Part shown: piece after piece, positions 2,263 through 54,440 of the stretch | Position numbering within the stretch: the first letter of the stretch is position 1 | How the letters are laid out: every line of letters starts with the position of its first letter | Assembly (NCBI GenBank): GCA_964457775.1 | Contig: CAYWEW010000007.1 | Span: 6,961 to 70,960 of the forward strand | Direction of reading: 5' to 3' | DNA: 64,000 bases | Source of the DNA: an uncultured Candidatus Saccharibacteria bacterium | Lineage (GTDB): Bacteria > Patescibacteriota > Minisyncoccia > Phycocordibacterales > UBA5272 | Notes under the pieces: generated by a model | What the model was told of the DNA's origin: nothing | Databases searched by the model: none | The model's input: only the letters and a program-made list of their open reading frames with translations | Program-made: the position numbers and the translations under genes

Positions 2263-4977
2263 ATGCCTCCATCATTTAATAATTTCACCACCAAGGCCAA
2301 AGAAGTCATTCGTCGTGCGCATGAGCTTGCAATTGAACGTGGTCAAAATCAAGTAAACCCACTACATCTTATGGGTGCACTTCTCACACAAGAGGAGTCA
2401 CTTGTTCATGCTATTTTGGAAAAGTTAGAAATCGATATTATTCATCTTACTGATAGTATCGTCGACGCCATAGAAGTTCCCGGAGCATCATCCACTATGA
2501 GTCAGTCATATCAGATGTATCTTACACCAGAACTTGCTCAAACTCTTGAAGTGTCACTTAAAGTTGCTCAATCATACAATGATGAATTCGTTTCGACCGA
2601 ACATCTTTTCCTTGCACTTTTAGAATCCACAGGACAAGTACGCGAAATACTTGCTCGTTTTCGCATCGACAAAGAACAAGCTTATCATATTCTGGAAGAA
2701 CTTCGTTCAAGTAATATTACTGATGCTCAAGGTCCAAAGAAAAACAAAGCACTTGCGAAATTTACTCGTAACTTCACAGATCTTGCACGTCAGGACAAAC
2801 TCGATCCAGTTATTGGGCGTGATGTTGAGATTATGCGCCTAATGCAAATTCTTTCTCGTCGTACAAAGAACAATCCAATTGTAATTGGTGAAGCGGGAAC
2901 AGGAAAGACTGCTGTTGTTGAAGGTCTTGCAATTCGTATGGCAAAAGGGGATGTACCAGAAAGTTTGAAAGGAAAGGAACTCGTATCACTCGATCTTGGT
3001 ATGTTAATTGCTGGAACAAAGTTTCGTGGAGAATTCGAAGAGAGATTAAAATCAATCATGAAAGAAATAGAACGCTCAGAAGGAGGGATTATTCTTTTCA
3101 TTGATGAAATACATACAATAGTTGGAGCAGGGGCAACAGAAGGTTCAGCAGATGCGGCGAACTTGCTTAAACCAGCACTTTCTCGTGGAGAGTTGCGCGC
3201 GATAGGTGCGACAACTCTTAAGGAATATCAAAAGCATATTGAAAAGGATCCTGCACTTGCGCGTCGTTTTCAACCAGTGTTTGTTGAAGAGCCGAATGAG
3301 GTGGACGCTCTTGCTATTTTGCGCGGTCTAAAAGAAAAGTATGAATTATTCCATGGTGTACGCATTACAGATGATGCACTTGTGTCTGCGGTTAATCTTT
3401 CAACAAGATATATCACATCTCGTTTCCTTCCAGATAAGGCTATTGACCTTATCGATGAAGCAGCATCATCACTTCGTATTGCACTTGAGAATAAGCCACC
3501 AGTTTTAGATGAGGCACACCGTAGAATTATGCGTCTTGAAATTGAAAAAGAAGCTCTTACAAAAGAGTTGATTGCTCATAGTGATGATAATGTCACTGGT
3601 ACAAAGAAACGTATCGCAACTATTGAAGAAGAAATTGCAAATGTAAAAGAAAAAACACATGAACTAGAACTTAAGTGGAAGAATGAGAAGAAAACACTTT
3701 TAGAAATAGGCGAGATTAAAAAGTCACTAGAGTCATTAAGAGCTGAGTCAGAGAAAGCAGAACTCAGAGCTGACCTTACTCGTGTTGCTGAGATTCGTTA
3801 TGGCCAAATACCAGAACTTACAAAAGAACTTGGAGAAAGGATTGAAAGACTAAAGAAACTTCAAAAGACTAGAAGAATCTTAAAAGAAGAAGTTACAGAA
3901 GAAGATGTGGCTGGTGTTGTTGCGCGTTGGACGGGTATTCCAGTTGTTCGCATGCTTGAAGAAGAAGAGGATAAATTGTCACGAATGGAAGATGAACTTG
4001 GTAAGCGTGTTATAAGTCAACGTGATGCAATTGCGAAGATTAGTGGTGCAGTACGTCGCTCACGCGCGGGAATCAATGATCCACAGCGACCAATCGGATC
4101 ATTTATGTTCTTGGGCCCAACCGGTGTTGGTAAGACTGAACTTACTAAGGCTCTTGCTGAATTTATGTTCAACGATGAAAAGGCTTTGATTAAAGTCGAC
4201 ATGAGTGAATACATGGAGAAACATAGTACAAGCAAATTAATTGGTTCACCTCCAGGATATGTTGGTTATGACGAATCAGGACAATTAACAGAAGCAGTAC
4301 GTCATCGTCCATATGCAGTTATTTTGTTTGACGAAATAGAAAAGGCTCATCCTGAAGTATTTAATCTCTTACTTCAAGTGTTAGATGAAGGACGTCTCAC
4401 TGACAGTAAAGGTCGTGTTGTTAATTTCAAAAACACAATTATTATTATGACTTCAAATATTGGAAGCCAATATATTCAAAAAATGGAAACAATTGGATTT
4501 TCTAACAATGAAGTTGGAAGTGAATATGTTCAAGTAAAAGAACGTGTTATGGAAGCACTTAAGGAATTCTTCAAACCAGAATTTTTGAATAGACTTGATG
4601 AAACAATTATCTTTGATGTTCTTTCCAAAGAAGAAGTCAAAAAAATTGTATCACTTCAAATTAATCTACTTGCAGACAGACTTACAGAAAAAGAAATTGT
4701 ACTTGATGTAACCCATGAAGCAGTGTCACATATTGCAGAAAAATCATATGACCCACATTATGGTGCGCGACCAATTAAGAGATTTATGCAAACAAATATT
4801 CTTAATCAAATCGCCGCACTTATGCTTTCTAAGAAATTTGGAAAGGGAGGAATTGCACATGTATCACTTAATAAAAAAGGTGACATAGAAGTGGATGCTA
4901 GAAAAGCAAAGAAAATACCTAGTCCATTAAATGTAGAATTACGTAGAACAAAAACAGAAGGACGTGGAAAGAAATAA
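2263..4977 (+). CDS. clpB: ATP-dependent chaperone ClpB (Hsp100, two AAA+ modules)
   Basis: 904 aa. N-terminal Clp_N repeats, Walker A GEAGTGKT and LGPTGVGKT, a middle coiled-coil, and near-colinear similarity to E. coli ClpB throughout. Confidence 0.95.
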
Positions 4978-5005
4978 AATTACTAAGAAAATGGAACTGC
5001 GTATA

Positions 5006-5033
5006 ACATATTAATTTGACTTTTGTCAAGTTT
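5006..5033 (+). promoter_or_regulatory. Sigma70-like promoter TTGACT-16-TATACT for the small ORF below
   Basis: Read directly from the sequence. An AAAAGGGG ribosome-binding site precedes the ATG at 5094. Confidence 0.4.
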
Positions 5034-5093
5034 GTGCTATACTGCATAGAGGTTACACAAGTTTTTGTTTTTGTAATGAAAAGGGGTGTAAAA

Positions 5094-5327
5094 ATGAAAG
5101 TCCTTTCCTTGAAAGAAGTGCGTCCCGGTATGAAAGTATTCGTTTCAATGCCTGGGTCTCCCCCAATAAAAAATGCAACTGTAAGGAAGGTTGCAGTAGA
5201 AAAGATTCATGGATGGCAAGAAGTAATTAGTTTGTTCCTCAACGTAGGAGAAGGTCAAAGTCATATTTTGGTTGCTGGAGTGGATGATTTCTCCAGGTCT
5301 AATAATCAGATATTTTTGACTGCATAA
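5094..5327 (+). CDS. Small hypothetical protein (77 aa), internal start of the listed 5016..5327 ORF
   Basis: The ATG at 5094 has an AAAAGGGGTG SD sequence and lies downstream of the predicted promoter. No family recognised. Confidence 0.4.
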   Translation: MKVLSLKEVRPGMKVFVSMPGSPPIKNATVRKVAVEKIHGWQEVISLFLNVGEGQSHILVAGVDDFSRSNNQIFLTA

Positions 5328-31508: not shown

Positions 31509-32666
31509 ATGATAACAGTCATACCAATTATTATGTTGTTAATGTTCCTCTTTATTGTTGTAGGAATTGGTTTCCTTATTTATTCATTTACTATTAAAAA
31601 AAATATCATGAACGGAGAAATAAAAACAAAAGCACTAGACGTATTCGTTTACTTGGGAATTGCGATATCACTTGTATGGAGTGTTGTTAATCTTTTACAA
31701 ATTATATTTTCTGCAATTGATAGAAAATTTGTGGATGTATTAAATGCTACGATGTATTTGGATACATATAACAGTGATGTTAGATTTGCTATCGCATCAC
31801 TAGTAGTGATGTACCCAATCTATTTAGGATTGTCGTGGTATGTAGCAAATGATATACAAAAGTTTTTATATAAGCGTGATCTTCTAATTAGAAAAGTAAT
31901 GGTGTACATAACATTATTTGTTACTGTGTGTACTCTTATAGGCACACTTGTCTCACTTATCTATACATATTTAGGTGGTGAGTTATCTGTGAGATTTGAA
32001 TTAAAAGCACTAGCAATATTTGTAGTGGCTCTTTCTTTGTTTGCTTATTATTTGTATTCAATGAAAAGAGATTATTCAAAGAAAAGTAATGTTCCTTTAA
32101 TTTTAAGTATAGTAGTTTCAACTGCAGTTGTTGTATCTTTGGTTTGGAGTGTGAGTATTATTGGAACACCATCACAAATGCGTGCGAAGAGATTAGACAG
32201 TACAAGACTGTCTGATATTTCTAGAATACAACAAGAAGTTTTGAGTCGAGTAAATATGACTGATAAAATTCCAGCTGAACTTTCAGAATTGAATAATGCT
32301 TTCCAGGGATATGCTATTCCAGTTGATCCAGTTACAAAGGAAGCTTATGGATATAATGTTATACAACAACCAACATTTAAAATGAATTATGTTACTAATA
32401 AAAAAGAATTAGTAACACCTGCAATATTCGAATTATGTGCGACATTTGAAACGGTTCGCAATGTTGATGCAAGAGGTATGTCTATTAATGCATCAGAGCC
32501 GATGAAAGTTGGTGTGGGTGGAGGTGTAGGAATTGGTGTAATGGATATACAGTATTCTGCTATGAACTATTATTACGAGGGCGATCAATCACCTTTCTGG
32601 AATCATGAAGTAGGGGAGAAGTGTTTTAAGAGAATTATATCTTCCGAAATGTATTACGGTCGTTAA
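31509..32666 (+). CDS. Hypothetical polytopic membrane protein with a C-terminal soluble domain
   Basis: Five to six TM helices, then a Gly-rich motif VGVGGGVGIGV. No recognised family. Confidence 0.5.
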   Translation: MITVIPIIMLLMFLFIVVGIGFLIYSFTIKKNIMNGEIKTKALDVFVYLGIAISLVWSVVNLLQIIFSAIDRKFVDVLNATMYLDTYNSDVRFAIASLVVMYPIYLGLSWYVANDIQKFLYKRDLLIRKVMVYITLFVTVCTLIGTLVSLIYTYLGGELSVRFELKALAIFVVALSLFAYYLYSMKRDYSKKSNVPLILSIVVSTAVVVSLVWSVSIIGTPSQMRAKRLDSTRLSDISRIQQEVLSRVNMTDKIPAELSELNNAFQGYAIPVDPVTKEAYGYNVIQQPTFKMNYVTNKKELVTPAIFELCATFETVRNVDARGMSINASEPMKVGVGGGVGIGVMDIQYSAMNYYYEGDQSPFWNHEVGEKCFKRIISSEMYYGR

Positions 32667-32936
32667 AAAAAATCACTTTATCTACTGCGTTGTGTGAGAT
32701 TTTTTCTCCATGCGCCGTACTTACTCGTACGCCTTAGTCATAAAAATCTCACACGCCTTTTATCTAAAGCAATTTTTTCATAACGAAAAATAAAGAACTA
32801 CTTTACGAATTAGTTTCGTAAATACAAAGAACGATACCGAAAGTATCGTTCTTTGTATTTCTAAAGAATAACATCCTAACTTCCTAACGTGCATTTTTGT
32901 TTTGCTACTACATGATAATTTGATAGTATAGAGAGT

Positions 32937-35789
32937 ATGAAGTTATACGACCATAAAAATAATGACGCTAAGTGGCAGAAGGATTGGGAAGATAAAAAAA
33001 TATATCAAACTCCCGTCAAACCAAACGGCAAGAAGTCATACATTCTAGACATGTTCCCATATCCATCAGGAGACGGCCTACATGTTGGTCATCCAAAAGG
33101 ATATATTGCAACAGATATTTATTCGAGATTTAAGCGTATGAATGGCTATGACGTGCTGCACCCAATGGGATGGGATGCCTTTGGTCTTCCCGCAGAACAA
33201 TATGCTATCAAAAATAAAATACATCCTAAAATTGCAGTAGAAAAAAATGTTGCAATGTTCAAGCAACAACTTTCTCATCTTGGTCTTAGTTATGATTGGT
33301 CACGAGAAATAGACACAACAGATCCTAATTTTTATAAATGGACTCAGTGGATTTTTACAAAGTTATACGAGAAGGGTTTAGCTTATGAAAGTAATGAACC
33401 AATCAATTGGTGTCCAACATGTAAGACCGGTCTTGCGAATGAAGATGTTAATGCAGATGGGACGTGTGAGAGATGTGATACTAAAGTAGAGAAGAAACCA
33501 ATTCGACAGTGGGTGCTTAAGATTACTGATTATGCAGATAGAATGCTTTCGGATTTAGACACTCTCAATTGGCCTGAAGGGGTGAAGACTGCTCAGAAGA
33601 ATTGGATTGGACGTAGTGAAGGTGCAGAATTTGATTTCAAATTAGTTGACGCACCACAGGAGTCAGTGAGAATTTTTACAACTAGAGCAGATACACTTTT
33701 TGGTGCAACGTATGTAGCTATATCAGCCGAACTAGCTCAATCATGGTTGAAGATGAATTTTAAAATGAGTGAAGATGTCAAGAAGTATATTGTAGCTACA
33801 TTGGAAGATCAAAAGAAAGAAAATGATTATTCTGTCGTTCCTGAAAAAACAGGAGTGTTCACGGGCGTATATGCAATTAATCCTGTAACACAAGAAAAGC
33901 TTCCAGTATGGATTGCGAATTATGTAATGGGTGGAGTTGGCACTGGTGCAATCATGGCCGTACCAGCTCACGATGAACGTGATTATGAATTTGCAAAGAA
34001 ATATAATCTACCAATTAAGCAAGTTGTTCTTCCAGTTTTTGTCGATAAAGTTAATCCACCTAAAGTAGACGCTGAAGATACTGTTCGTCATGGTGTGATT
34101 GTTCTTGTTAAACACTGGTCCGAAGAAAAGTATTTGATTGATTATTCTCCGAAGTTTAATTGGAAGTGTTTATTCACAGGTGGTATAGATGAAGGGGAAG
34201 ACCCACTGGATTCTGCTGTTAGAGAAATAAGAGAAGAAACTGGGTATCAGAATATAAAGGAAGTAAAATATATTCCACTTGAACATGTTGATAAATTCCA
34301 TGCACCACATAAAGGGGTTAATAGAGTTGCATATCAAAAAAATATCTTTATTCAGCTTCTAGATGGAGAAACAAAAGAAAGAACAGAAGAAGAAAAAGAG
34401 CTTCACCATATTTCTTGGTTAACAAAAGAAGAGATGAGAAAAACGATTTCACTTCCAAATCATCTTTTTATTTTTGAGACGGCATTACAAGATGGAAATG
34501 TTTTGACTGAAGACGGTATTCTTTCTAATTCTGGTAATTATTCTAATTTGGAATCAAAAGAAGTAAGAGAAAAAATCATAAAAGATTTTGGTGGTAAAAA
34601 AGTTGTAAAGTACAAAATACAAGATTGGGTATTTGCTCGTCAAAGATATTGGGGTGAACCATTTCCTGTTGTTCGTGATGAAAATGGAAAAGTGTATATG
34701 GTTGACGAAAGTGAACTTCCAGTACTACTTCCAAATGTAGAGAGCTATGAACCAACAGATACTGGAGAGTCACCACTTGCAACTATTACGGACTGGGTAA
34801 ATGTAAAAGGCTTTATTACTGACAAGGGGACATTCAAACAATCAGCTGACGGAAAAGTATTCACTCGCGAAACAAACACAATGCCACAGTGGGCAGGTTC
34901 ATCATGGTACTATCTTCGCTTTGCAGATCCGAGAAATGATAAAGCACTTATTGATCCAGAGATAGAAAAGTCGTGGTTACCAGTTGATGTATATGTTGGA
35001 GGGGATCATGCAACAAGACATCTTATCTATGCGAGATTTTGGCACAAATTTTTGTATGACATTGGAGTCGTGTCATCAATCGAACCATTTTCACGTTTAG
35101 AGTTCTTAGGATTTATTCTTGCTGAAGATGGACGTAAGATGAGTAAGAGATGGGGGAATATTATCAATCCAGACGATGTGGTAGCCGAGCATGGAGCAGA
35201 CACACTTCGAGTGTATGAAATGTTCATGGCACCATTTGAACAAACTGCCTCATGGAGTACATCAAGTATTAAAGGTTCAGATAAATTTTTGGACAGAGTG
35301 TATTCACTTCAATCAAAAATTGTAGAGAAAAGTAATGTGACCAATGTACTTCATAAGACAATTAAAAAAGTCACAGAAGATATTGAGAGTTTTAAGTTCA
35401 ACACAGCAATATCTCAGATGATGATATTAACTAATAGTATGGAAGATGGGGAATTTACAAAAGATGATTACAGTACTTTCTTGCAAATTTTAGCCCCGTT
35501 TGCACCACATCTTACAGAGGAAATTTGGTCCAAATTAGGGCAAAATACATCAATTCATAGCTCGGTTTGGCCATCATTTGATGATAAATATCTAGTCACA
35601 AATGAGGTAACTATAGCAATTCAGATAAGCGGAAAGATGAGGGGAACAACTATTACAACACGAGATTTGTCAGATGACAAGATGATAGAATTGGTAAAAA
35701 CCCTTGAAATATATAGGAAATATGTCGGTGATGCCGTTCCTAAAAAAATAATAGTAATTCCAAATCGGCTAATTAATATAATAATTTGA
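32937..35789 (+). CDS. leuS: Leucyl-tRNA synthetase carrying an inserted Nudix-hydrolase domain
   Basis: HIGH (HVGH), KMSKS (RKMSKRWGN), the CP1 region and AHDERDYEFAKKYNLPI. A Nudix box GGIDEGEDPLDSAVREIREETG is inserted upstream of the conserved leucyl-specific segment ILSNSGNY...YKIQDW, which aligns to E. coli VLFNSGEF...YRLRDW. Confidence 0.95.
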   Translation: MKLYDHKNNDAKWQKDWEDKKIYQTPVKPNGKKSYILDMFPYPSGDGLHVGHPKGYIATDIYSRFKRMNGYDVLHPMGWDAFGLPAEQYAIKNKIHPKIAVEKNVAMFKQQLSHLGLSYDWSREIDTTDPNFYKWTQWIFTKLYEKGLAYESNEPINWCPTCKTGLANEDVNADGTCERCDTKVEKKPIRQWVLKITDYADRMLSDLDTLNWPEGVKTAQKNWIGRSEGAEFDFKLVDAPQESVRIFTTRADTLFGATYVAISAELAQSWLKMNFKMSEDVKKYIVATLEDQKKENDYSVVPEKTGVFTGVYAINPVTQEKLPVWIANYVMGGVGTGAIMAVPAHDERDYEFAKKYNLPIKQVVLPVFVDKVNPPKVDAEDTVRHGVIVLVKHWSEEKYLIDYSPKFNWKCLFTGGIDEGEDPLDSAVREIREETGYQNIKEVKYIPLEHVDKFHAPHKGVNRVAYQKNIFIQLLDGETKERTEEEKELHHISWLTKEEMRKTISLPNHLFIFETALQDGNVLTEDGILSNSGNYSNLESKEVREKIIKDFGGKKVVKYKIQDWVFARQRYWGEPFPVVRDENGKVYMVDESELPVLLPNVESYEPTDTGESPLATITDWVNVKGFITDKGTFKQSADGKVFTRETNTMPQWAGSSWYYLRFADPRNDKALIDPEIEKSWLPVDVYVGGDHATRHLIYARFWHKFLYDIGVVSSIEPFSRLEFLGFILAEDGRKMSKRWGNIINPDDVVAEHGADTLRVYEMFMAPFEQTASWSTSSIKGSDKFLDRVYSLQSKIVEKSNVTNVLHKTIKKVTEDIESFKFNTAISQMMILTNSMEDGEFTKDDYSTFLQILAPFAPHLTEEIWSKLGQNTSIHSSVWPSFDDKYLVTNEVTIAIQISGKMRGTTITTRDLSDDKMIELVKTLEIYRKYVGDAVPKKIIVIPNRLINIII

Positions 35790-36869: not shown

Positions 36870-36965
36870 TCAAAAGTCTAAAGTCTGTAAAGTTAAAAGT
36901 AGTAAATGCATAACCTAAAGGGTTATGCATTTACTTTATAAACTTTCAACTTTATAGACTTTTGA
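36870..36965. repeat. About 95-bp imperfect inverted repeat with a central perfect 12-bp hairpin (aaatgcataacc-taaag-ggttatgcattt)
   Basis: Read from the sequence. The arms tcaaaagtctaaagtctgtaaagtt / aactttcaactttatagacttttga flank the hairpin at 36903..36933. Confidence 0.6.
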
Positions 36966-47683: not shown

Positions 47684-48718
47684 ATGCCTATTATACCGAC
47701 CACCCAAAAGATTGATATCAATCAAAGAAAAATCATCAATGGAAAAGATGCTGATGTTATGCAACTTTATCCGATGAAGCATACTTATGCATGGGATACA
47801 TATCTCGCTGCAAATGCCAATCACTGGCTCCCAACCGAAATATCAATGCAAAGAGATATTGAACAATGGAAGAGTAAAGATACTCTTACTCAAGATGAGA
47901 GAGATGCTTTCGAGACAGTGCTTGGATTCTTCTCCACCGCGGACTCACTCGCCGCGAATAATGTGGTACTCGCATTCTATAAGCACATCACTAGTCCAGA
48001 AGTTAGAATGTATCTTCTTCGTCAAGGTTATGAAGAGGCGATTCATACACATTCATATCAATATATTGTGGAGTCACTTGGGCTAGATCAAGGCAAAATC
48101 TTCAACATGTATCGTGAGAAAAAGGCCATATATGATAAGGATAATTTGGTTTTGTCATTGAATGAAGGAATATTTGATGATAATTTCCATACAGGAACAT
48201 TTGAAAATGACCAGAAGTTTTTGGAGAATATGTGTGTGTTCTCACTCATTATGGAAGGACTATTCTTCTATTCTTCTTTTGCGGTGATGTTTGGTCTTCA
48301 GCGACAAAATAAAATGACAGCGAGTGCAGAGCAGATACAATATATTATGCGTGATGAATCCAATCACTTGAACTTCGGTGTGTTCATGATTAACACTATT
48401 AAGGAAGAACAGCCAGAGTTGTGGACTCCAGAATTCCAACAGCATATTATTGATTTGATGAAGCGCGCGGTTGACCTTGAGTATGAGTTCGCTATTACAG
48501 TTTTCCCTAAAGGAATATTCGGTATGAATGCGCAAGGGTTCAGACAATATACTGAGCATATTGCAGACAGACGTTTGAATGCTGTTGGTTTGCCTTCAGT
48601 ATATGGCTCAGCGAATCCATTCCCATGGATGAGTGAGGCGATTGATTTGTCGAAGGAGAAGAATTTCTTTGAGACCCGCGTGACCGAGTACAAAGTTGGT
48701 GGCACCCTAGAATGGTAA
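47684..48718 (+). CDS. nrdB: Ribonucleotide reductase class I beta subunit
   Basis: Di-iron ligand motifs EEAIHTHSY and ESNH. Follows nrdA. Confidence 0.9.
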   Translation: MPIIPTTQKIDINQRKIINGKDADVMQLYPMKHTYAWDTYLAANANHWLPTEISMQRDIEQWKSKDTLTQDERDAFETVLGFFSTADSLAANNVVLAFYKHITSPEVRMYLLRQGYEEAIHTHSYQYIVESLGLDQGKIFNMYREKKAIYDKDNLVLSLNEGIFDDNFHTGTFENDQKFLENMCVFSLIMEGLFFYSSFAVMFGLQRQNKMTASAEQIQYIMRDESNHLNFGVFMINTIKEEQPELWTPEFQQHIIDLMKRAVDLEYEFAITVFPKGIFGMNAQGFRQYTEHIADRRLNAVGLPSVYGSANPFPWMSEAIDLSKEKNFFETRVTEYKVGGTLEW

Positions 48719-48876
48719 CTATTTCGCAATAAATTACTTCATCTACTTCGTTATGGAGCCTCGCGTGCTCGTCAACGTAGACCTACTACGTCTCCTCGCA
48801 CGCACTCCATGCCTCGTATCTAAAGCAATTTCTTGTGAAATAGAATTAATTATTTAATAATTTAAACAAAATTAAA

Positions 48877-49921: not shown

Positions 49922-49950
49922 ATTTTAGGTTTTAAAATAAGTTATAAAAT

Positions 49951-49984
49951 AAGAGCAACTACGAAGTAGTTGCTCTTATTTTAT
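49951..49984 (+). terminator. Rho-independent terminator after the FKBP gene
   Basis: aagagcaactac-gaa-gtagttgctctt followed by attttat. Confidence 0.75.
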
Positions 49985-50004
49985 ATAGACAAGCTGTTAG
50001 TATA

Positions 50005-51293: not shown

Positions 51294-51701
51294 TTAATCA
51301 GCGAAATATTTTTCTAGTATTTTAAAATAAGTATTCCCATCATCTAGTTTTTTATAATTATCTTTTGTAACCCAAGAAAAGTTGGAGTGTTCATCACTCA
51401 TTTTGACTTCTCCAGAAACATAGTCACATTTATATCCAACAAGGAAAAGTTTATTACCAGCTAGTCTGTGTTCAGAAGGGATTATATAATTCCATGTCGC
51501 AAAAGGTTCACCAACGTTAATTTCTAATCCAGTCTCTTCCATAACTTCACGTTTAAGAGATTCAATTAAGTCAGTTTCATGTTCTTGAATTTTGCCACCA
51601 GGGTAGTCTACTCTCCACCTTGAGTCAGCTAGTACGAGTACCTCATCTCCTTTTTTGATAAAGGCTTTTTGTCCAACATAATATAAGGCATCTTCTTTCA
51701 T
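51294..51701 (-). CDS. Nudix hydrolase (MutT-like)
   Basis: Nudix box GGKIQEHETDLIESLKREVMEETG. Confidence 0.8.
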   Translation of the reverse strand: MKEDALYYVGQKAFIKKGDEVLVLADSRWRVDYPGGKIQEHETDLIESLKREVMEETGLEINVGEPFATWNYIIPSEHRLAGNKLFLVGYKCDYVSGEVKMSDEHSNFSWVTKDNYKKLDDGNTYFKILEKYFAD

Positions 51702-51787
51702 AGTTTTTTATTATATCAGAGTTTTGTATTTTTTTTATATCGAAATATGTTGAGTGTGTTTTAGTTCAGATATTGAGTCAGGTACGA

Positions 51788-51852
51788 GGTATAGGAAAAT
51801 TTTTGACTGAAATGTACAGCTAGTACATTGAAAGAAAAAATTTTCCTATACC
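51788..51852. repeat. Nested palindromic element A: 17-bp perfect arms ggtataggaaaattttt / aaaaattttcctatacc enclosing an inner hairpin atgtac-agcta-gtacat
   Basis: Read from the sequence. Lies in a 750-bp ORF-poor region. Confidence 0.6.
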
Positions 51853-51920
51853 GAAGTAGATGGCGCAATATATGGATAATAAAATATATTTACCAAATAA
51901 AACAGTTTAAGATGCGAGGC

Positions 51921-51982
51921 GGAAGAAATTTTTACGACCAAGACGTACGAGTAGTACGTCGCGTGGAGGAAAAATTTCTTCC
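51921..51982. repeat. Nested palindromic element B: 13-bp perfect arms ggaagaaattttt / aaaaatttcttcc enclosing an inner hairpin gacgtac-gagta-gtacgtc
   Basis: Same architecture as element A (GGNNGAAAATTTTT arms, GTAC-containing inner stem with a 5-nt loop), 70 bp downstream. Confidence 0.6.
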
Positions 51983-52013
51983 AACAAAGCAGATTGAACT
52001 GTTTTACAAGGTA

Positions 52014-52054
52014 AAGTAAAAACCGCCCCTCTGGTAAGTACGGCGGTTTTTACT
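52014..52054. terminator. Long (13-bp) stem-loop with U-runs on both sides, a bidirectional terminator
   Basis: agtaaaaaccgcc-(cctctggtaagtac)-ggcggtttttact. Confidence 0.6.
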
Positions 52055-52410
52055 TTGTTACTTTAAATATTAAAGTGACGTCTTTGTTTGATGCGTTACG
52101 GTTGCTTCTGGCTTCCGTTTTTGTTAGTAAGGTTTTAATTTACTTCCAGTTGTTTGAAGCCGCATCTGCTTTTTTATCGGCATCGATATTTGTGATTATA
52201 AGTTCACATTTATCTTCATAGACTCCAAGACCTATCCCTTGATATTCTTTTCTATAGTACTAAAAGCTGATAATGAAACAACTGTCTATACATAGTGTAA
52301 CAACTCATCGTATTATACTCAAGCAAAAGCAACAAAGTTATTCACACCCCCATAAAACAGTCAGTAGTGAATAGGGTGTAGATGGTAGTAGAATTCTAGA
52401 TATACTTTTT

Positions 52411-52456
52411 CTACACGCTACACGCTACACGCTACACGCTACACGCTACACGCTAC
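52411..52456. repeat. Heptanucleotide microsatellite (CTACACG)x6.5. The last unit supplies the TAG stop codon of the minus-strand rluB-like gene.
   Basis: Perfect tandem copies read directly. An inverted partial copy gggtgtag lies 30 bp upstream. Confidence 0.9.
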
Positions 52457-54362: not shown

Positions 54363-54402
54363 ACATAGTATGCATCTAGTAGTTGATAGCTTGTTACAAA
54401 AT

Positions 54403-54440
54403 TAATACTGCGCAACGCCGAAGCTGTTGCGCAGTATTAA
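54403..54440 (-). terminator. Terminator hairpin downstream of rnj (minus strand)
   Basis: ttaatactgcgcaac-gccgaagct-gttgcgcagtattaa. The minus strand continues aattttgt. Confidence 0.6.

Follow-up and report, generated by a model that had tools for sequence, protein, structure and literature searches.

A dispersed foldback repeat family of ~125 bp, probably of the MITE or REP/REPIN kind, with four copies in 64,000 nucleotides of a Patescibacteria genome

Two groups of described elements come closest to the subject of this work. One comprises the TA-inserting miniature transposable elements with inverted repeats (MITEs) of the IS630/Tc1-mariner type, such as the Correia elements or Neisseria miniature insertion sequences (NEMIS) and the Stowaway-like foldback elements. 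The other comprises the repetitive extragenic palindromes (REP) and their paired forms (REPIN), which go with REP-associated tyrosine transposases (RAYT), Y1 HUH enzymes like those of IS200/IS605, together with the palindrome-associated transposable elements (PATEs) derived from IS200/IS605. The subject itself is a noncoding region of 750 bp on contig CAYWEW010000007.1 of an uncultured Candidatus Saccharibacteria bacterium (Patescibacteriota; assembly GCA_964457775.1), of which a stretch of 64,000 nucleotides, hereafter the window, was analysed. The region holds two nested palindromes, el1 and el2. With a probability put at about 0.68, these belong, together with two other copies in the window, to a widespread, noncoding foldback repeat family of ~125 bp that is of the MITE or REP/REPIN kind.

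With the IS630/Tc1-mariner MITEs, the repeat family shares a length in the range of ~100-150 bp, the lack of coding content and a foldback that extends over the full length. Both have TA at each end, in the repeat family with a preference for CTAG; both occur as numerous dispersed copies beside genes, at sites that may be filled or empty, and as tandem, nested and truncated copies, and both are likely to affect transcript ends. The insertion target of IS630 is the TA inside CTAG, and the repeat arm CAGGCTGCTCAAAAAGG resembles the end of Tc1, CAGTGCTGGCCAAAAAG; these two likenesses serve as leads, not as tests. The repeat family differs from the MITEs in that its stems covary, asymmetric purine loops are fixed and one strand folds better than the other. 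Moreover, no matching transposase was found in the loci searched, and the core is common to hosts of the candidate phyla radiation (CPR) and to high-GC diderm hosts.

REP/REPIN and PATEs are likewise extragenic palindromes at the 3' ends of genes. The hairpins of REP/REPIN are thought to act as single-stranded DNA (ssDNA) and are kept while the sequence drifts, long vertical inheritance is possible, and clusters are formed; the repeat family is alike in these respects, including arrays that resemble bacterial interspersed mosaic elements (BIMEs), and its strand-specific structure fits a single-strand mechanism. In contrast to REP/REPIN, it forms one long rod instead of two short inverted REP hairpins, and no GTAG-type head is located at its foot; a conserved G(U/C)AG is confined to the 3' arm, where it forms part of the motif AAG(U/C)AGAU. 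Imperfect palindromes of ~125 bp in transcribed intergenic regions, found in either orientation and in copy numbers that vary among relatives, are also known as enterobacterial repetitive intergenic consensus (ERIC) sequences or intergenic repeat units (IRU; 127 bp) and as BOX, RUP and RPE elements. ERIC, however, has no sequence similarity to the repeat family, conserves its sequence rather than covarying and has a narrow host range. Tandem hairpin units with short conserved motifs and variable stems occur in CPR and phage genomes as TIGR-Tas arrays as well. A TIGR unit has two unpaired spacers of 8-12 nt flanked by box C/D motifs, and a Nop-domain tas gene is adjacent (PMC12045711). Identity with a TIGR array was rejected, the variable segments of the repeat family being fully paired and its neighbours being genes for a NUDIX protein, a pseudouridine synthase, ribonucleotide reductase (RNR) and leucyl-tRNA synthetase (LeuRS), with no tas gene adjacent.

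In an earlier note on this DNA, el1 (51788-51852) and el2 (51921-51982) had been described as palindromes whose arms enclose inner GTAC hairpins, and they are found in the sequence at these positions. In el1, GGTATAGGAAAATTTT pairs with AAAATTTTCCTATACC inside 30-nt arms (51788-51817 and 51823-51852); the arms of el2 are perfect over 13 nt (51921-51933 and 51970-51982). The inner hairpins are atgtac-agcta-gtacat and gacgtac-gagta-gtacgtc, respectively, and the arm pattern GAAAWTTTT-N20-50-AAAAWTTTC has 2 matches versus 0.02 expected. The palindromes are real, but they represent only the middle and apical parts, that is, the upper two thirds, of hairpins larger than had been claimed: below them, each element contains two more basal helices, bringing the hairpin to ~125 nt. 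The two elements can be aligned end to end, including conserved flanks beyond the coordinates first assigned (AGRU.CGAGG on the 5' side and AAG(U/C)AGAU on the 3' side), and el1 has TA at both feet. The predicted minimum free energy is -48 kcal/mol for el1 (z -10.3 versus shuffles), with only -34.8 kcal/mol for its complement strand, and -53 kcal/mol for el2 (z -10.9 versus shuffles). Among the Logan contigs carrying an identical NUDIX gene (L001-L004), two short-read contigs, independent of each other, stop within the apical hairpins, at approximately window position 51814 for el1 and 51955 for el2, which is consistent with assembly breaks at foldback repeats.

That the pair stands for a family of identical architecture has been borne out by two more copies in the window (Table 1) and by further ones in relatives and metagenomes; the pattern is clearly neither confined to a single occurrence nor without conservation in relatives. 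The copy el3 was first seen at ~32692-32754 by an inverted-repeat scan and has the architecture of el1 and el2 in the opposite orientation. Its stem is flanked by A6/U8, its 3' foot overlaps the TAA stop codon of the convergent gene, and the model strand is predicted to fold with -46.8 kcal/mol, compared with -32.4 kcal/mol for the complement. The copy el4 was found with a first covariance model (R1) built from three copies and run with the filters off; its basal loops are kept, the GC-rich middle stem is divergent and the apex reads GUAG/CUAC. A second covariance model (R2) scores all four window copies at 100-107 bits, their identity to one another being 59-70%. All four show the form TA-foldback-TA, and at all three window loci the orientation is antisense to the flanking genes. 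As a general rule, the antisense orientation was abandoned because it fails in relatives and metagenomes.

From the base upward, the rod is composed of a helix P1, a C-C mismatch, an A/U-rich helix P2 and a tandem GA/GA loop; these are followed by a helix of 3 bp, a purine loop, a variable stem of 7-17 bp, GA loops and the conserved apex (G)ACGUAC-loop-GUACGU. The outer helices P1 and P2 constitute terminal inverted repeats (e.g., CAGGCTGCTCAAAAAGG / CCTTTTTCAGCAGCCTG and TTTCACAAG / TTGCGAAA), and the termini of the repeat family may be written as CTAG-CAGGCTGCTGAAAAAG with an inverted counterpart. The rod is kept in the high-GC consensus, with P1 (CAGGCUGCU / AGCAGCCUG), the C-C mismatch, P2 (AAAAAGGUCCA / UGGGCCUUUUU), the tandem GA/GA loop, the 3-bp helix, the purine loop, variable stems split by GA loops and the apex GAGGCGUAC-loop-GUACGUUGA. 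In variants of 165-185 nt, extra hairpins are placed inside the same core. Three known motifs were considered by eye for the basal loops. A loop E was discarded because the 3-bp helix covaries as Watson-Crick pairs, no register fits a canonical kink-turn, and a sarcin-ricin reading was dropped; the loops are described as tandem sheared G-A loops.

In an alignment of 70 copies covering the full GC range, 92.6% of the cells pair, 25 of 30 pairs have changed on both sides, and the covariation score is 0.623, whereas shuffles reach 0.17 and slid controls no more than 0.15. Compensatory changes are found in 24 of 30 pairs when the 28 copies from relatives are aligned. The modelled strand has the more stable fold in 26 of 28 CPR copies, with a mean difference of 12 kcal/mol, and the same holds for 98 of 99 copies from metagenomes (or 95 of 99 when DNA parameters are used); all but one of the 14 conserved unpaired columns are purine. 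The fold is strongly supported, and it is the hairpin shape on one strand that, judging from these alignments, would be under selection. Transcription of the host genes would not explain the strand-specific fold, because both orientations with respect to the abutting gene are common. The earlier suggestion of a structured-RNA family is upheld in so far as the fold covaries strongly and is strand-specific, but no family in Rfam corresponds to it: in gathering and E-value modes, with queries from the window as well as from CPR and high-GC loci, the repeat family gave only chance matches of the microRNA type.

Dispersal of the family is best seen in metagenomes. A degenerate core pattern occurs on more than 119 contigs among the matches listed, with GC contents of 0.27-0.73, and R2 confirmed a copy in almost every locus matched by the pattern; many of these contigs have a GC content of 0.65-0.72 and bear diderm genes, such as those for LptF/G and LpxC. 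There are 91 pairs whose members share at least 90% identity, but whose flanks (120 nt on either side) are no more alike than random sequences; one of these pairs consists of two copies with 98% identity that lie 4.9 kb apart on a single contig. Copies are frequent at the ends of contigs, and full copies may have truncated or nested ones beside them. Behind the 3' end, CTA stands in 30 and TTA in 7 of 93 copies, and many copies of medium and high GC have upstream a CTAG and, as a complement to the 3' arm, a degenerate extra arm. Convergent genes have their stop codon at a distance of exactly 0 nt in 14 of 52 cases, and a co-oriented upstream gene ends at a distance of up to 45 nt in 27 of 50 cases. 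The neighbours are unrelated housekeeping genes (dnaK, grpE, hrcA, ftsZ and those for LeuRS and RNR). For 137 flanking proteins, 156 different Pfam families were assigned, none of them more than 4 times; no conserved neighbouring gene emerged from this set, and no transposase is among its 25 most recurrent families.

Two metagenome contigs deserve mention in their own right. On a mid-GC contig (L183), two copies (3791-3917 and 5001-5127) bracket hrcA in an hrcA-grpE-dnaK operon, a spot at which operators of the CIRCE type (controlling inverted repeat of chaperone expression) would normally be expected. A CPR-like contig that also bears a repeat copy (L177) contains at 176-266 a different hairpin of ~90 nt with CAGUAGAUAG, which may be distantly related or belong to a second family of repeats.

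By its RNase J relatives, which come from Paceibacteria/Nomurabacteria-like metagenome-assembled genomes, the window belongs to Patescibacteria. In 80 related loci, the covariance model identified 28 copies, nearly all of them in closer relatives and located at two places, which are the counterparts of el1/el2 and of el4. At the ATP-grasp/DUF1508 locus, arrays of 0-4 copies are found whose order varies among relatives; the closest relatives, L005 and L006 (RNase J 90-92% identical), have no copy there. Directly behind the RNR stop codon there may be, depending on the relative, a copy of any of three subtypes, a tandem of two or no copy. The RNR site of L005 appears empty (TGGTAGCTAGG) and reads TGG-TAG-CTAG-G versus TAA-C-TA-[el4]-TA-G in the window, with the RNR tail being 97% identical. 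Filled as well as empty orthologous sites are seen both at the RNR stop codon and at the ATP-grasp/DUF1508 site. The latter locus also contains, in the window, a NUDIX gene (51294-51701, minus strand) between the ATP-grasp gene and the repeat array; since this gene is missing at that position in relatives such as L012 and L018, the ATP-grasp/repeat-array locus appears as a rearrangement hotspot.

Of the possibilities named in the earlier note, a miniature mobile element fits best, given near-identical copies in unrelated flanks, presence or absence at orthologous sites and the lack of a conserved neighbour gene. The features by which MITEs are recognized are seen, namely a length of ~125 nt (with variants up to 185 nt), noncoding content, terminal inverted repeats and dispersed similar copies. 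The family has been amplified recently in some lineages; it is gained or lost at orthologous sites, accumulates in tandem arrays and sits at TA/CTAG by the 3' ends of genes, often exactly at the stop codon. The element would spread by inserting at TA, with a preference for a TA that is part of CTAG or of a stop codon, and a mobilizing enzyme would act on it in trans. A single-stranded hairpin, either an ssDNA intermediate or a transcript, would be recognized by the mobilizing machinery or by a host protein. Following insertion, arrays would form and copies would decay. The hairpin would be selected either for recognition by the mobilizing machinery, as ssDNA or RNA, or for use by the host as a bidirectional terminator or 3'-end stabilizer. 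From anatomy and position, each copy would probably also act as a bidirectional intrinsic terminator or a 3'-end stabilizer for the gene it abuts, because the arrangement of A-tract, GC-foot hairpin and U-tract, which can be read in most copies, is built into both orientations. Such a role would explain why a compact genome tolerates the copies and keeps them.

Several points weigh against a mobile repeat family with a terminator function. An autonomous partner, that is, a transposase between the same termini, was not found in ~2 Mb of loci. Behind the insertion into TA there is a single apparent empty CTAG site, that of L005, and a target-site duplication is inseparable from the terminal inverted repeat because TA and CTAG are palindromic. 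The near-identity of dispersed cores could in part be due to gene conversion. The window copies are only 59-70% identical and are kept at orthologous sites in several relatives; in the lineage of the window, they look old, vertically inherited and not recently active, and since they are old and partly syntenic, a family of paralogous small RNA genes remains as an alternative. Very distant hosts have kept asymmetric GA loops, a loop strand made up of purines only and G-U pairs specific to one strand, and conservation of this kind is more characteristic of functional RNAs than of the ends of an ordinary cut-and-paste MITE. With regard to the terminator function, the U-run is located inside the outer helix, and the repeat hairpins were not called in a simple terminator consensus scan, which is itself uninformative.

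Other searches for an enzyme or a database entry belonging to the family gave the following picture. Where solo ends flanking a transposase were looked for, only longer noncoding variants turned up, and no open reading frame (ORF) was found between matching ends. Y1 HUH transposases or RAYTs, searched for with crude regular expressions for the HUH and NPV(K/R)xG motifs, were found neither in the window nor in any locus (~2 Mb). Phage and plasmid collections contained no match, one viral contig of IMG/VR matched the core pattern, and literature searches by topic and by sequence string returned nothing specific to the repeat family. If confirmed, the family would be previously uncatalogued.

A more far-reaching version of the mobile reading can be put forward tentatively, being possible but doubtful. 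According to it, the family would be a structure-dependent mobile or domesticated module whose GA-rich, purine-looped rod is read as RNA or ssDNA by a protein, either a hairpin-recognizing transposase or an RNA-binding factor, and which has been carried across phyla, from CPR to high-GC diderm bacteria. It would thus amount to a 'gene' for a functional RNA or ssDNA, spreading in the manner of a MITE and providing terminators adjacent to stop codons.

The rival explanation that survives best, albeit unlikely, is a set of paralogous small structured RNAs, each transcribed on its own, namely protein-binding rods with tandem sheared G-A motifs encoded by non-mobile genes that are occasionally duplicated. 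It would account for the strong covariation, for folding of one strand regardless of the orientation of the neighbouring gene, for the purine character of the conserved unpaired bases, for expansion hairpins at defined places with the core kept, for conservation at orthologous sites in several Paceibacteria and for the location of el1-el2 upstream of a terminator. No conserved promoter, however, was found in consensus scans, which are themselves uninformative, and in many cases the 3' end touches a convergent gene's stop codon or overlaps with it, so that a terminator would have no space. Near-identical copies in unrelated flanks, truncated and nested copies, the absence of copies from the closest relatives and the lack of an Rfam match also speak against it.

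It is quite improbable that the repeats are purely cis-acting bidirectional terminators or mRNA 3'-end stabilizers that have evolved where they stand without any mobility. The position right behind stop codons in either orientation, and the A-tract and U-tract around a GC-footed stem in most copies, would agree with such an origin. Yet a rod of 125 nt with purine loops and an apex common to hosts of GC 0.3 and GC 0.7 would be superfluous for termination, el1 and el2 are arranged in tandem ahead of a separate terminator, near-identical copies at unrelated loci cannot arise in place, and the strand asymmetry is independent of the direction of the terminated gene.

The attC sites of integrons are imperfect palindromes of variable size at the 3' end of an ORF, conserved at the level of structure and with the folding strand opposite the adjacent ORF. 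The repeats are of comparable size, conserve structure rather than sequence, have the folding strand antisense to the abutting ORF in many cases and may occur in several copies of one orientation on a contig. That they are ssDNA-folding recombination sites of this type, marking gene cassettes, is nevertheless very improbable. The termini are CAGG...CCTG or TTTC...GAAA, and on direct reading there are no R'/R'' core sites (RYYYAAC / GTTRRRY); the neighbours are housekeeping genes and not cassettes, both orientations with respect to the upstream gene are common, and no integrase was found. Hardly credible at all is a pair of sites peculiar to this intergenic region at which a protein binds double-stranded DNA (a partition site or an invertase/recombinase target, as the earlier note had proposed, or an operator), which would suit two similar palindromes side by side but not copies scattered singly and in arrays across genomes, in the window as well as at hundreds of unrelated loci, nor compensatory changes over ~40 bp of stem, nor a G-U asymmetry that argues for single-strand pairing, nor the lack of Par or recombinase genes nearby or otherwise associated.

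If the mobile foldback family is confirmed, it would link the ultra-small genomes of Patescibacteria with high-GC soil and sediment bacteria, would help in studying how repeats are tolerated by streamlined CPR genomes or exploited there as stop-codon terminators, and would serve as a marker for strain-level genome dynamics and assembly breaks. It joins a mobility signature with an unusually strong signature of selected single-strand structure and offers a tractable case for asking what recognizes a GA-rich hairpin rod.

Table 1. Repeat copies and other features of the window (R1 and R2, scores with the first and second covariance model).
Feature	Position	Strand	Remarks
Repeat copy el1	51758-51882	+	~125-nt foldback hairpin; R2 103.9 bits, E 5e-20
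Repeat copy el2	51888-52014	+	in tandem, 5 nt beyond el1; R2 107.3 bits, E 9e-21
Repeat copy el3	32660-32787	-	between DUF5671 gene and LeuRS gene; R2 100.5 bits
Repeat copy el4	48720-48843	-	abuts stop codon of RNR small-subunit gene; R1 62.6 bits, R2 101.9 bits
DUF5671 gene	31509-32666	+	on one side of el3
LeuRS gene	32937-35789	+	on the other side of el3
RNR small-subunit gene	47684-48718	+	stop codon adjoined by el4
Conserved RNA-like block	52013-52130	-	separate from repeat family; kept in 28 relatives
Remnant of decayed DUF1508 (YegP-like) gene	52140-52259	-	stop-to-stop segment ...ITNIDADKKADAASNNWK*, no start codon
Perfect heptanucleotide microsatellite (CTACACG)x6	52411-52452		directly 3' of pseudouridine synthase stop codon; outside repeat family

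The remainder of the 750-bp region calls for a corrected annotation, the long 'noncoding' gap being a decayed DUF1508 gene together with an adjoining, conserved candidate small RNA. The gap is long because the DUF1508 gene has decayed there. Relatives have an intact homologue (e.g., L017, 12960-13343; PF07411 at E 1e-10), to which only an 11-residue match is left in the window, where IDADKKADAAS...NNWK* survives. The RNA-like block is located downstream of the DUF1508 gene and, as far as can be told from sequence, is a candidate for a small RNA derived from a 3' untranslated region. It consists of an invariant single-stranded 20-mer ACGCAUCAAACAAAGACGUC, a variable covarying hairpin and a terminator hairpin (52056-52013) with a 14-nt invariant loop (A/G)UACUUACCAGAGG (loop ACUUACCAGAGG), the stem of which covaries and has G-U pairs on the minus strand. 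This end hairpin is the bidirectional terminator by which, according to the earlier note, the region is flanked; its stem comprises 15 bp (52013-52027 / 52042-52056) and not 13. The block is found in relatives with or without repeat copies, including L005 and L006. Its match to the Rfam family ohsC, with the loop CUUACCAG in common, is sub-threshold (43.2 bits versus a gathering score of 50).

Two further ideas about this region were set aside. An anti-Shine-Dalgarno seed in the terminator loop is weakly founded, local genes having no clear Shine-Dalgarno sequence and no complement of the loop being enriched in the window. An H/ACA-like guide for the adjacent pseudouridine synthase was rejected, as the repeats have no pseudouridylation pocket and the copies are dispersed. 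The 63-aa ORF at 51828-52019, which spans both hairpins and has no Pfam match, is noncoding, as had been assumed; it is, however, not the only ORF, a second one of 48 aa being present at 52075-52221.

Elsewhere in the window, the LeuRS encoded beside el3 contains a NUDIX domain (PF00293) at residues 388-502, next to the editing domain, which is an unusual fusion or insertion. Perfect, terminator-like inverted repeats of 15-20 bp are located at 36901-36935, 49943-49985 and 54402-54440; they do not match the model of the repeat family.

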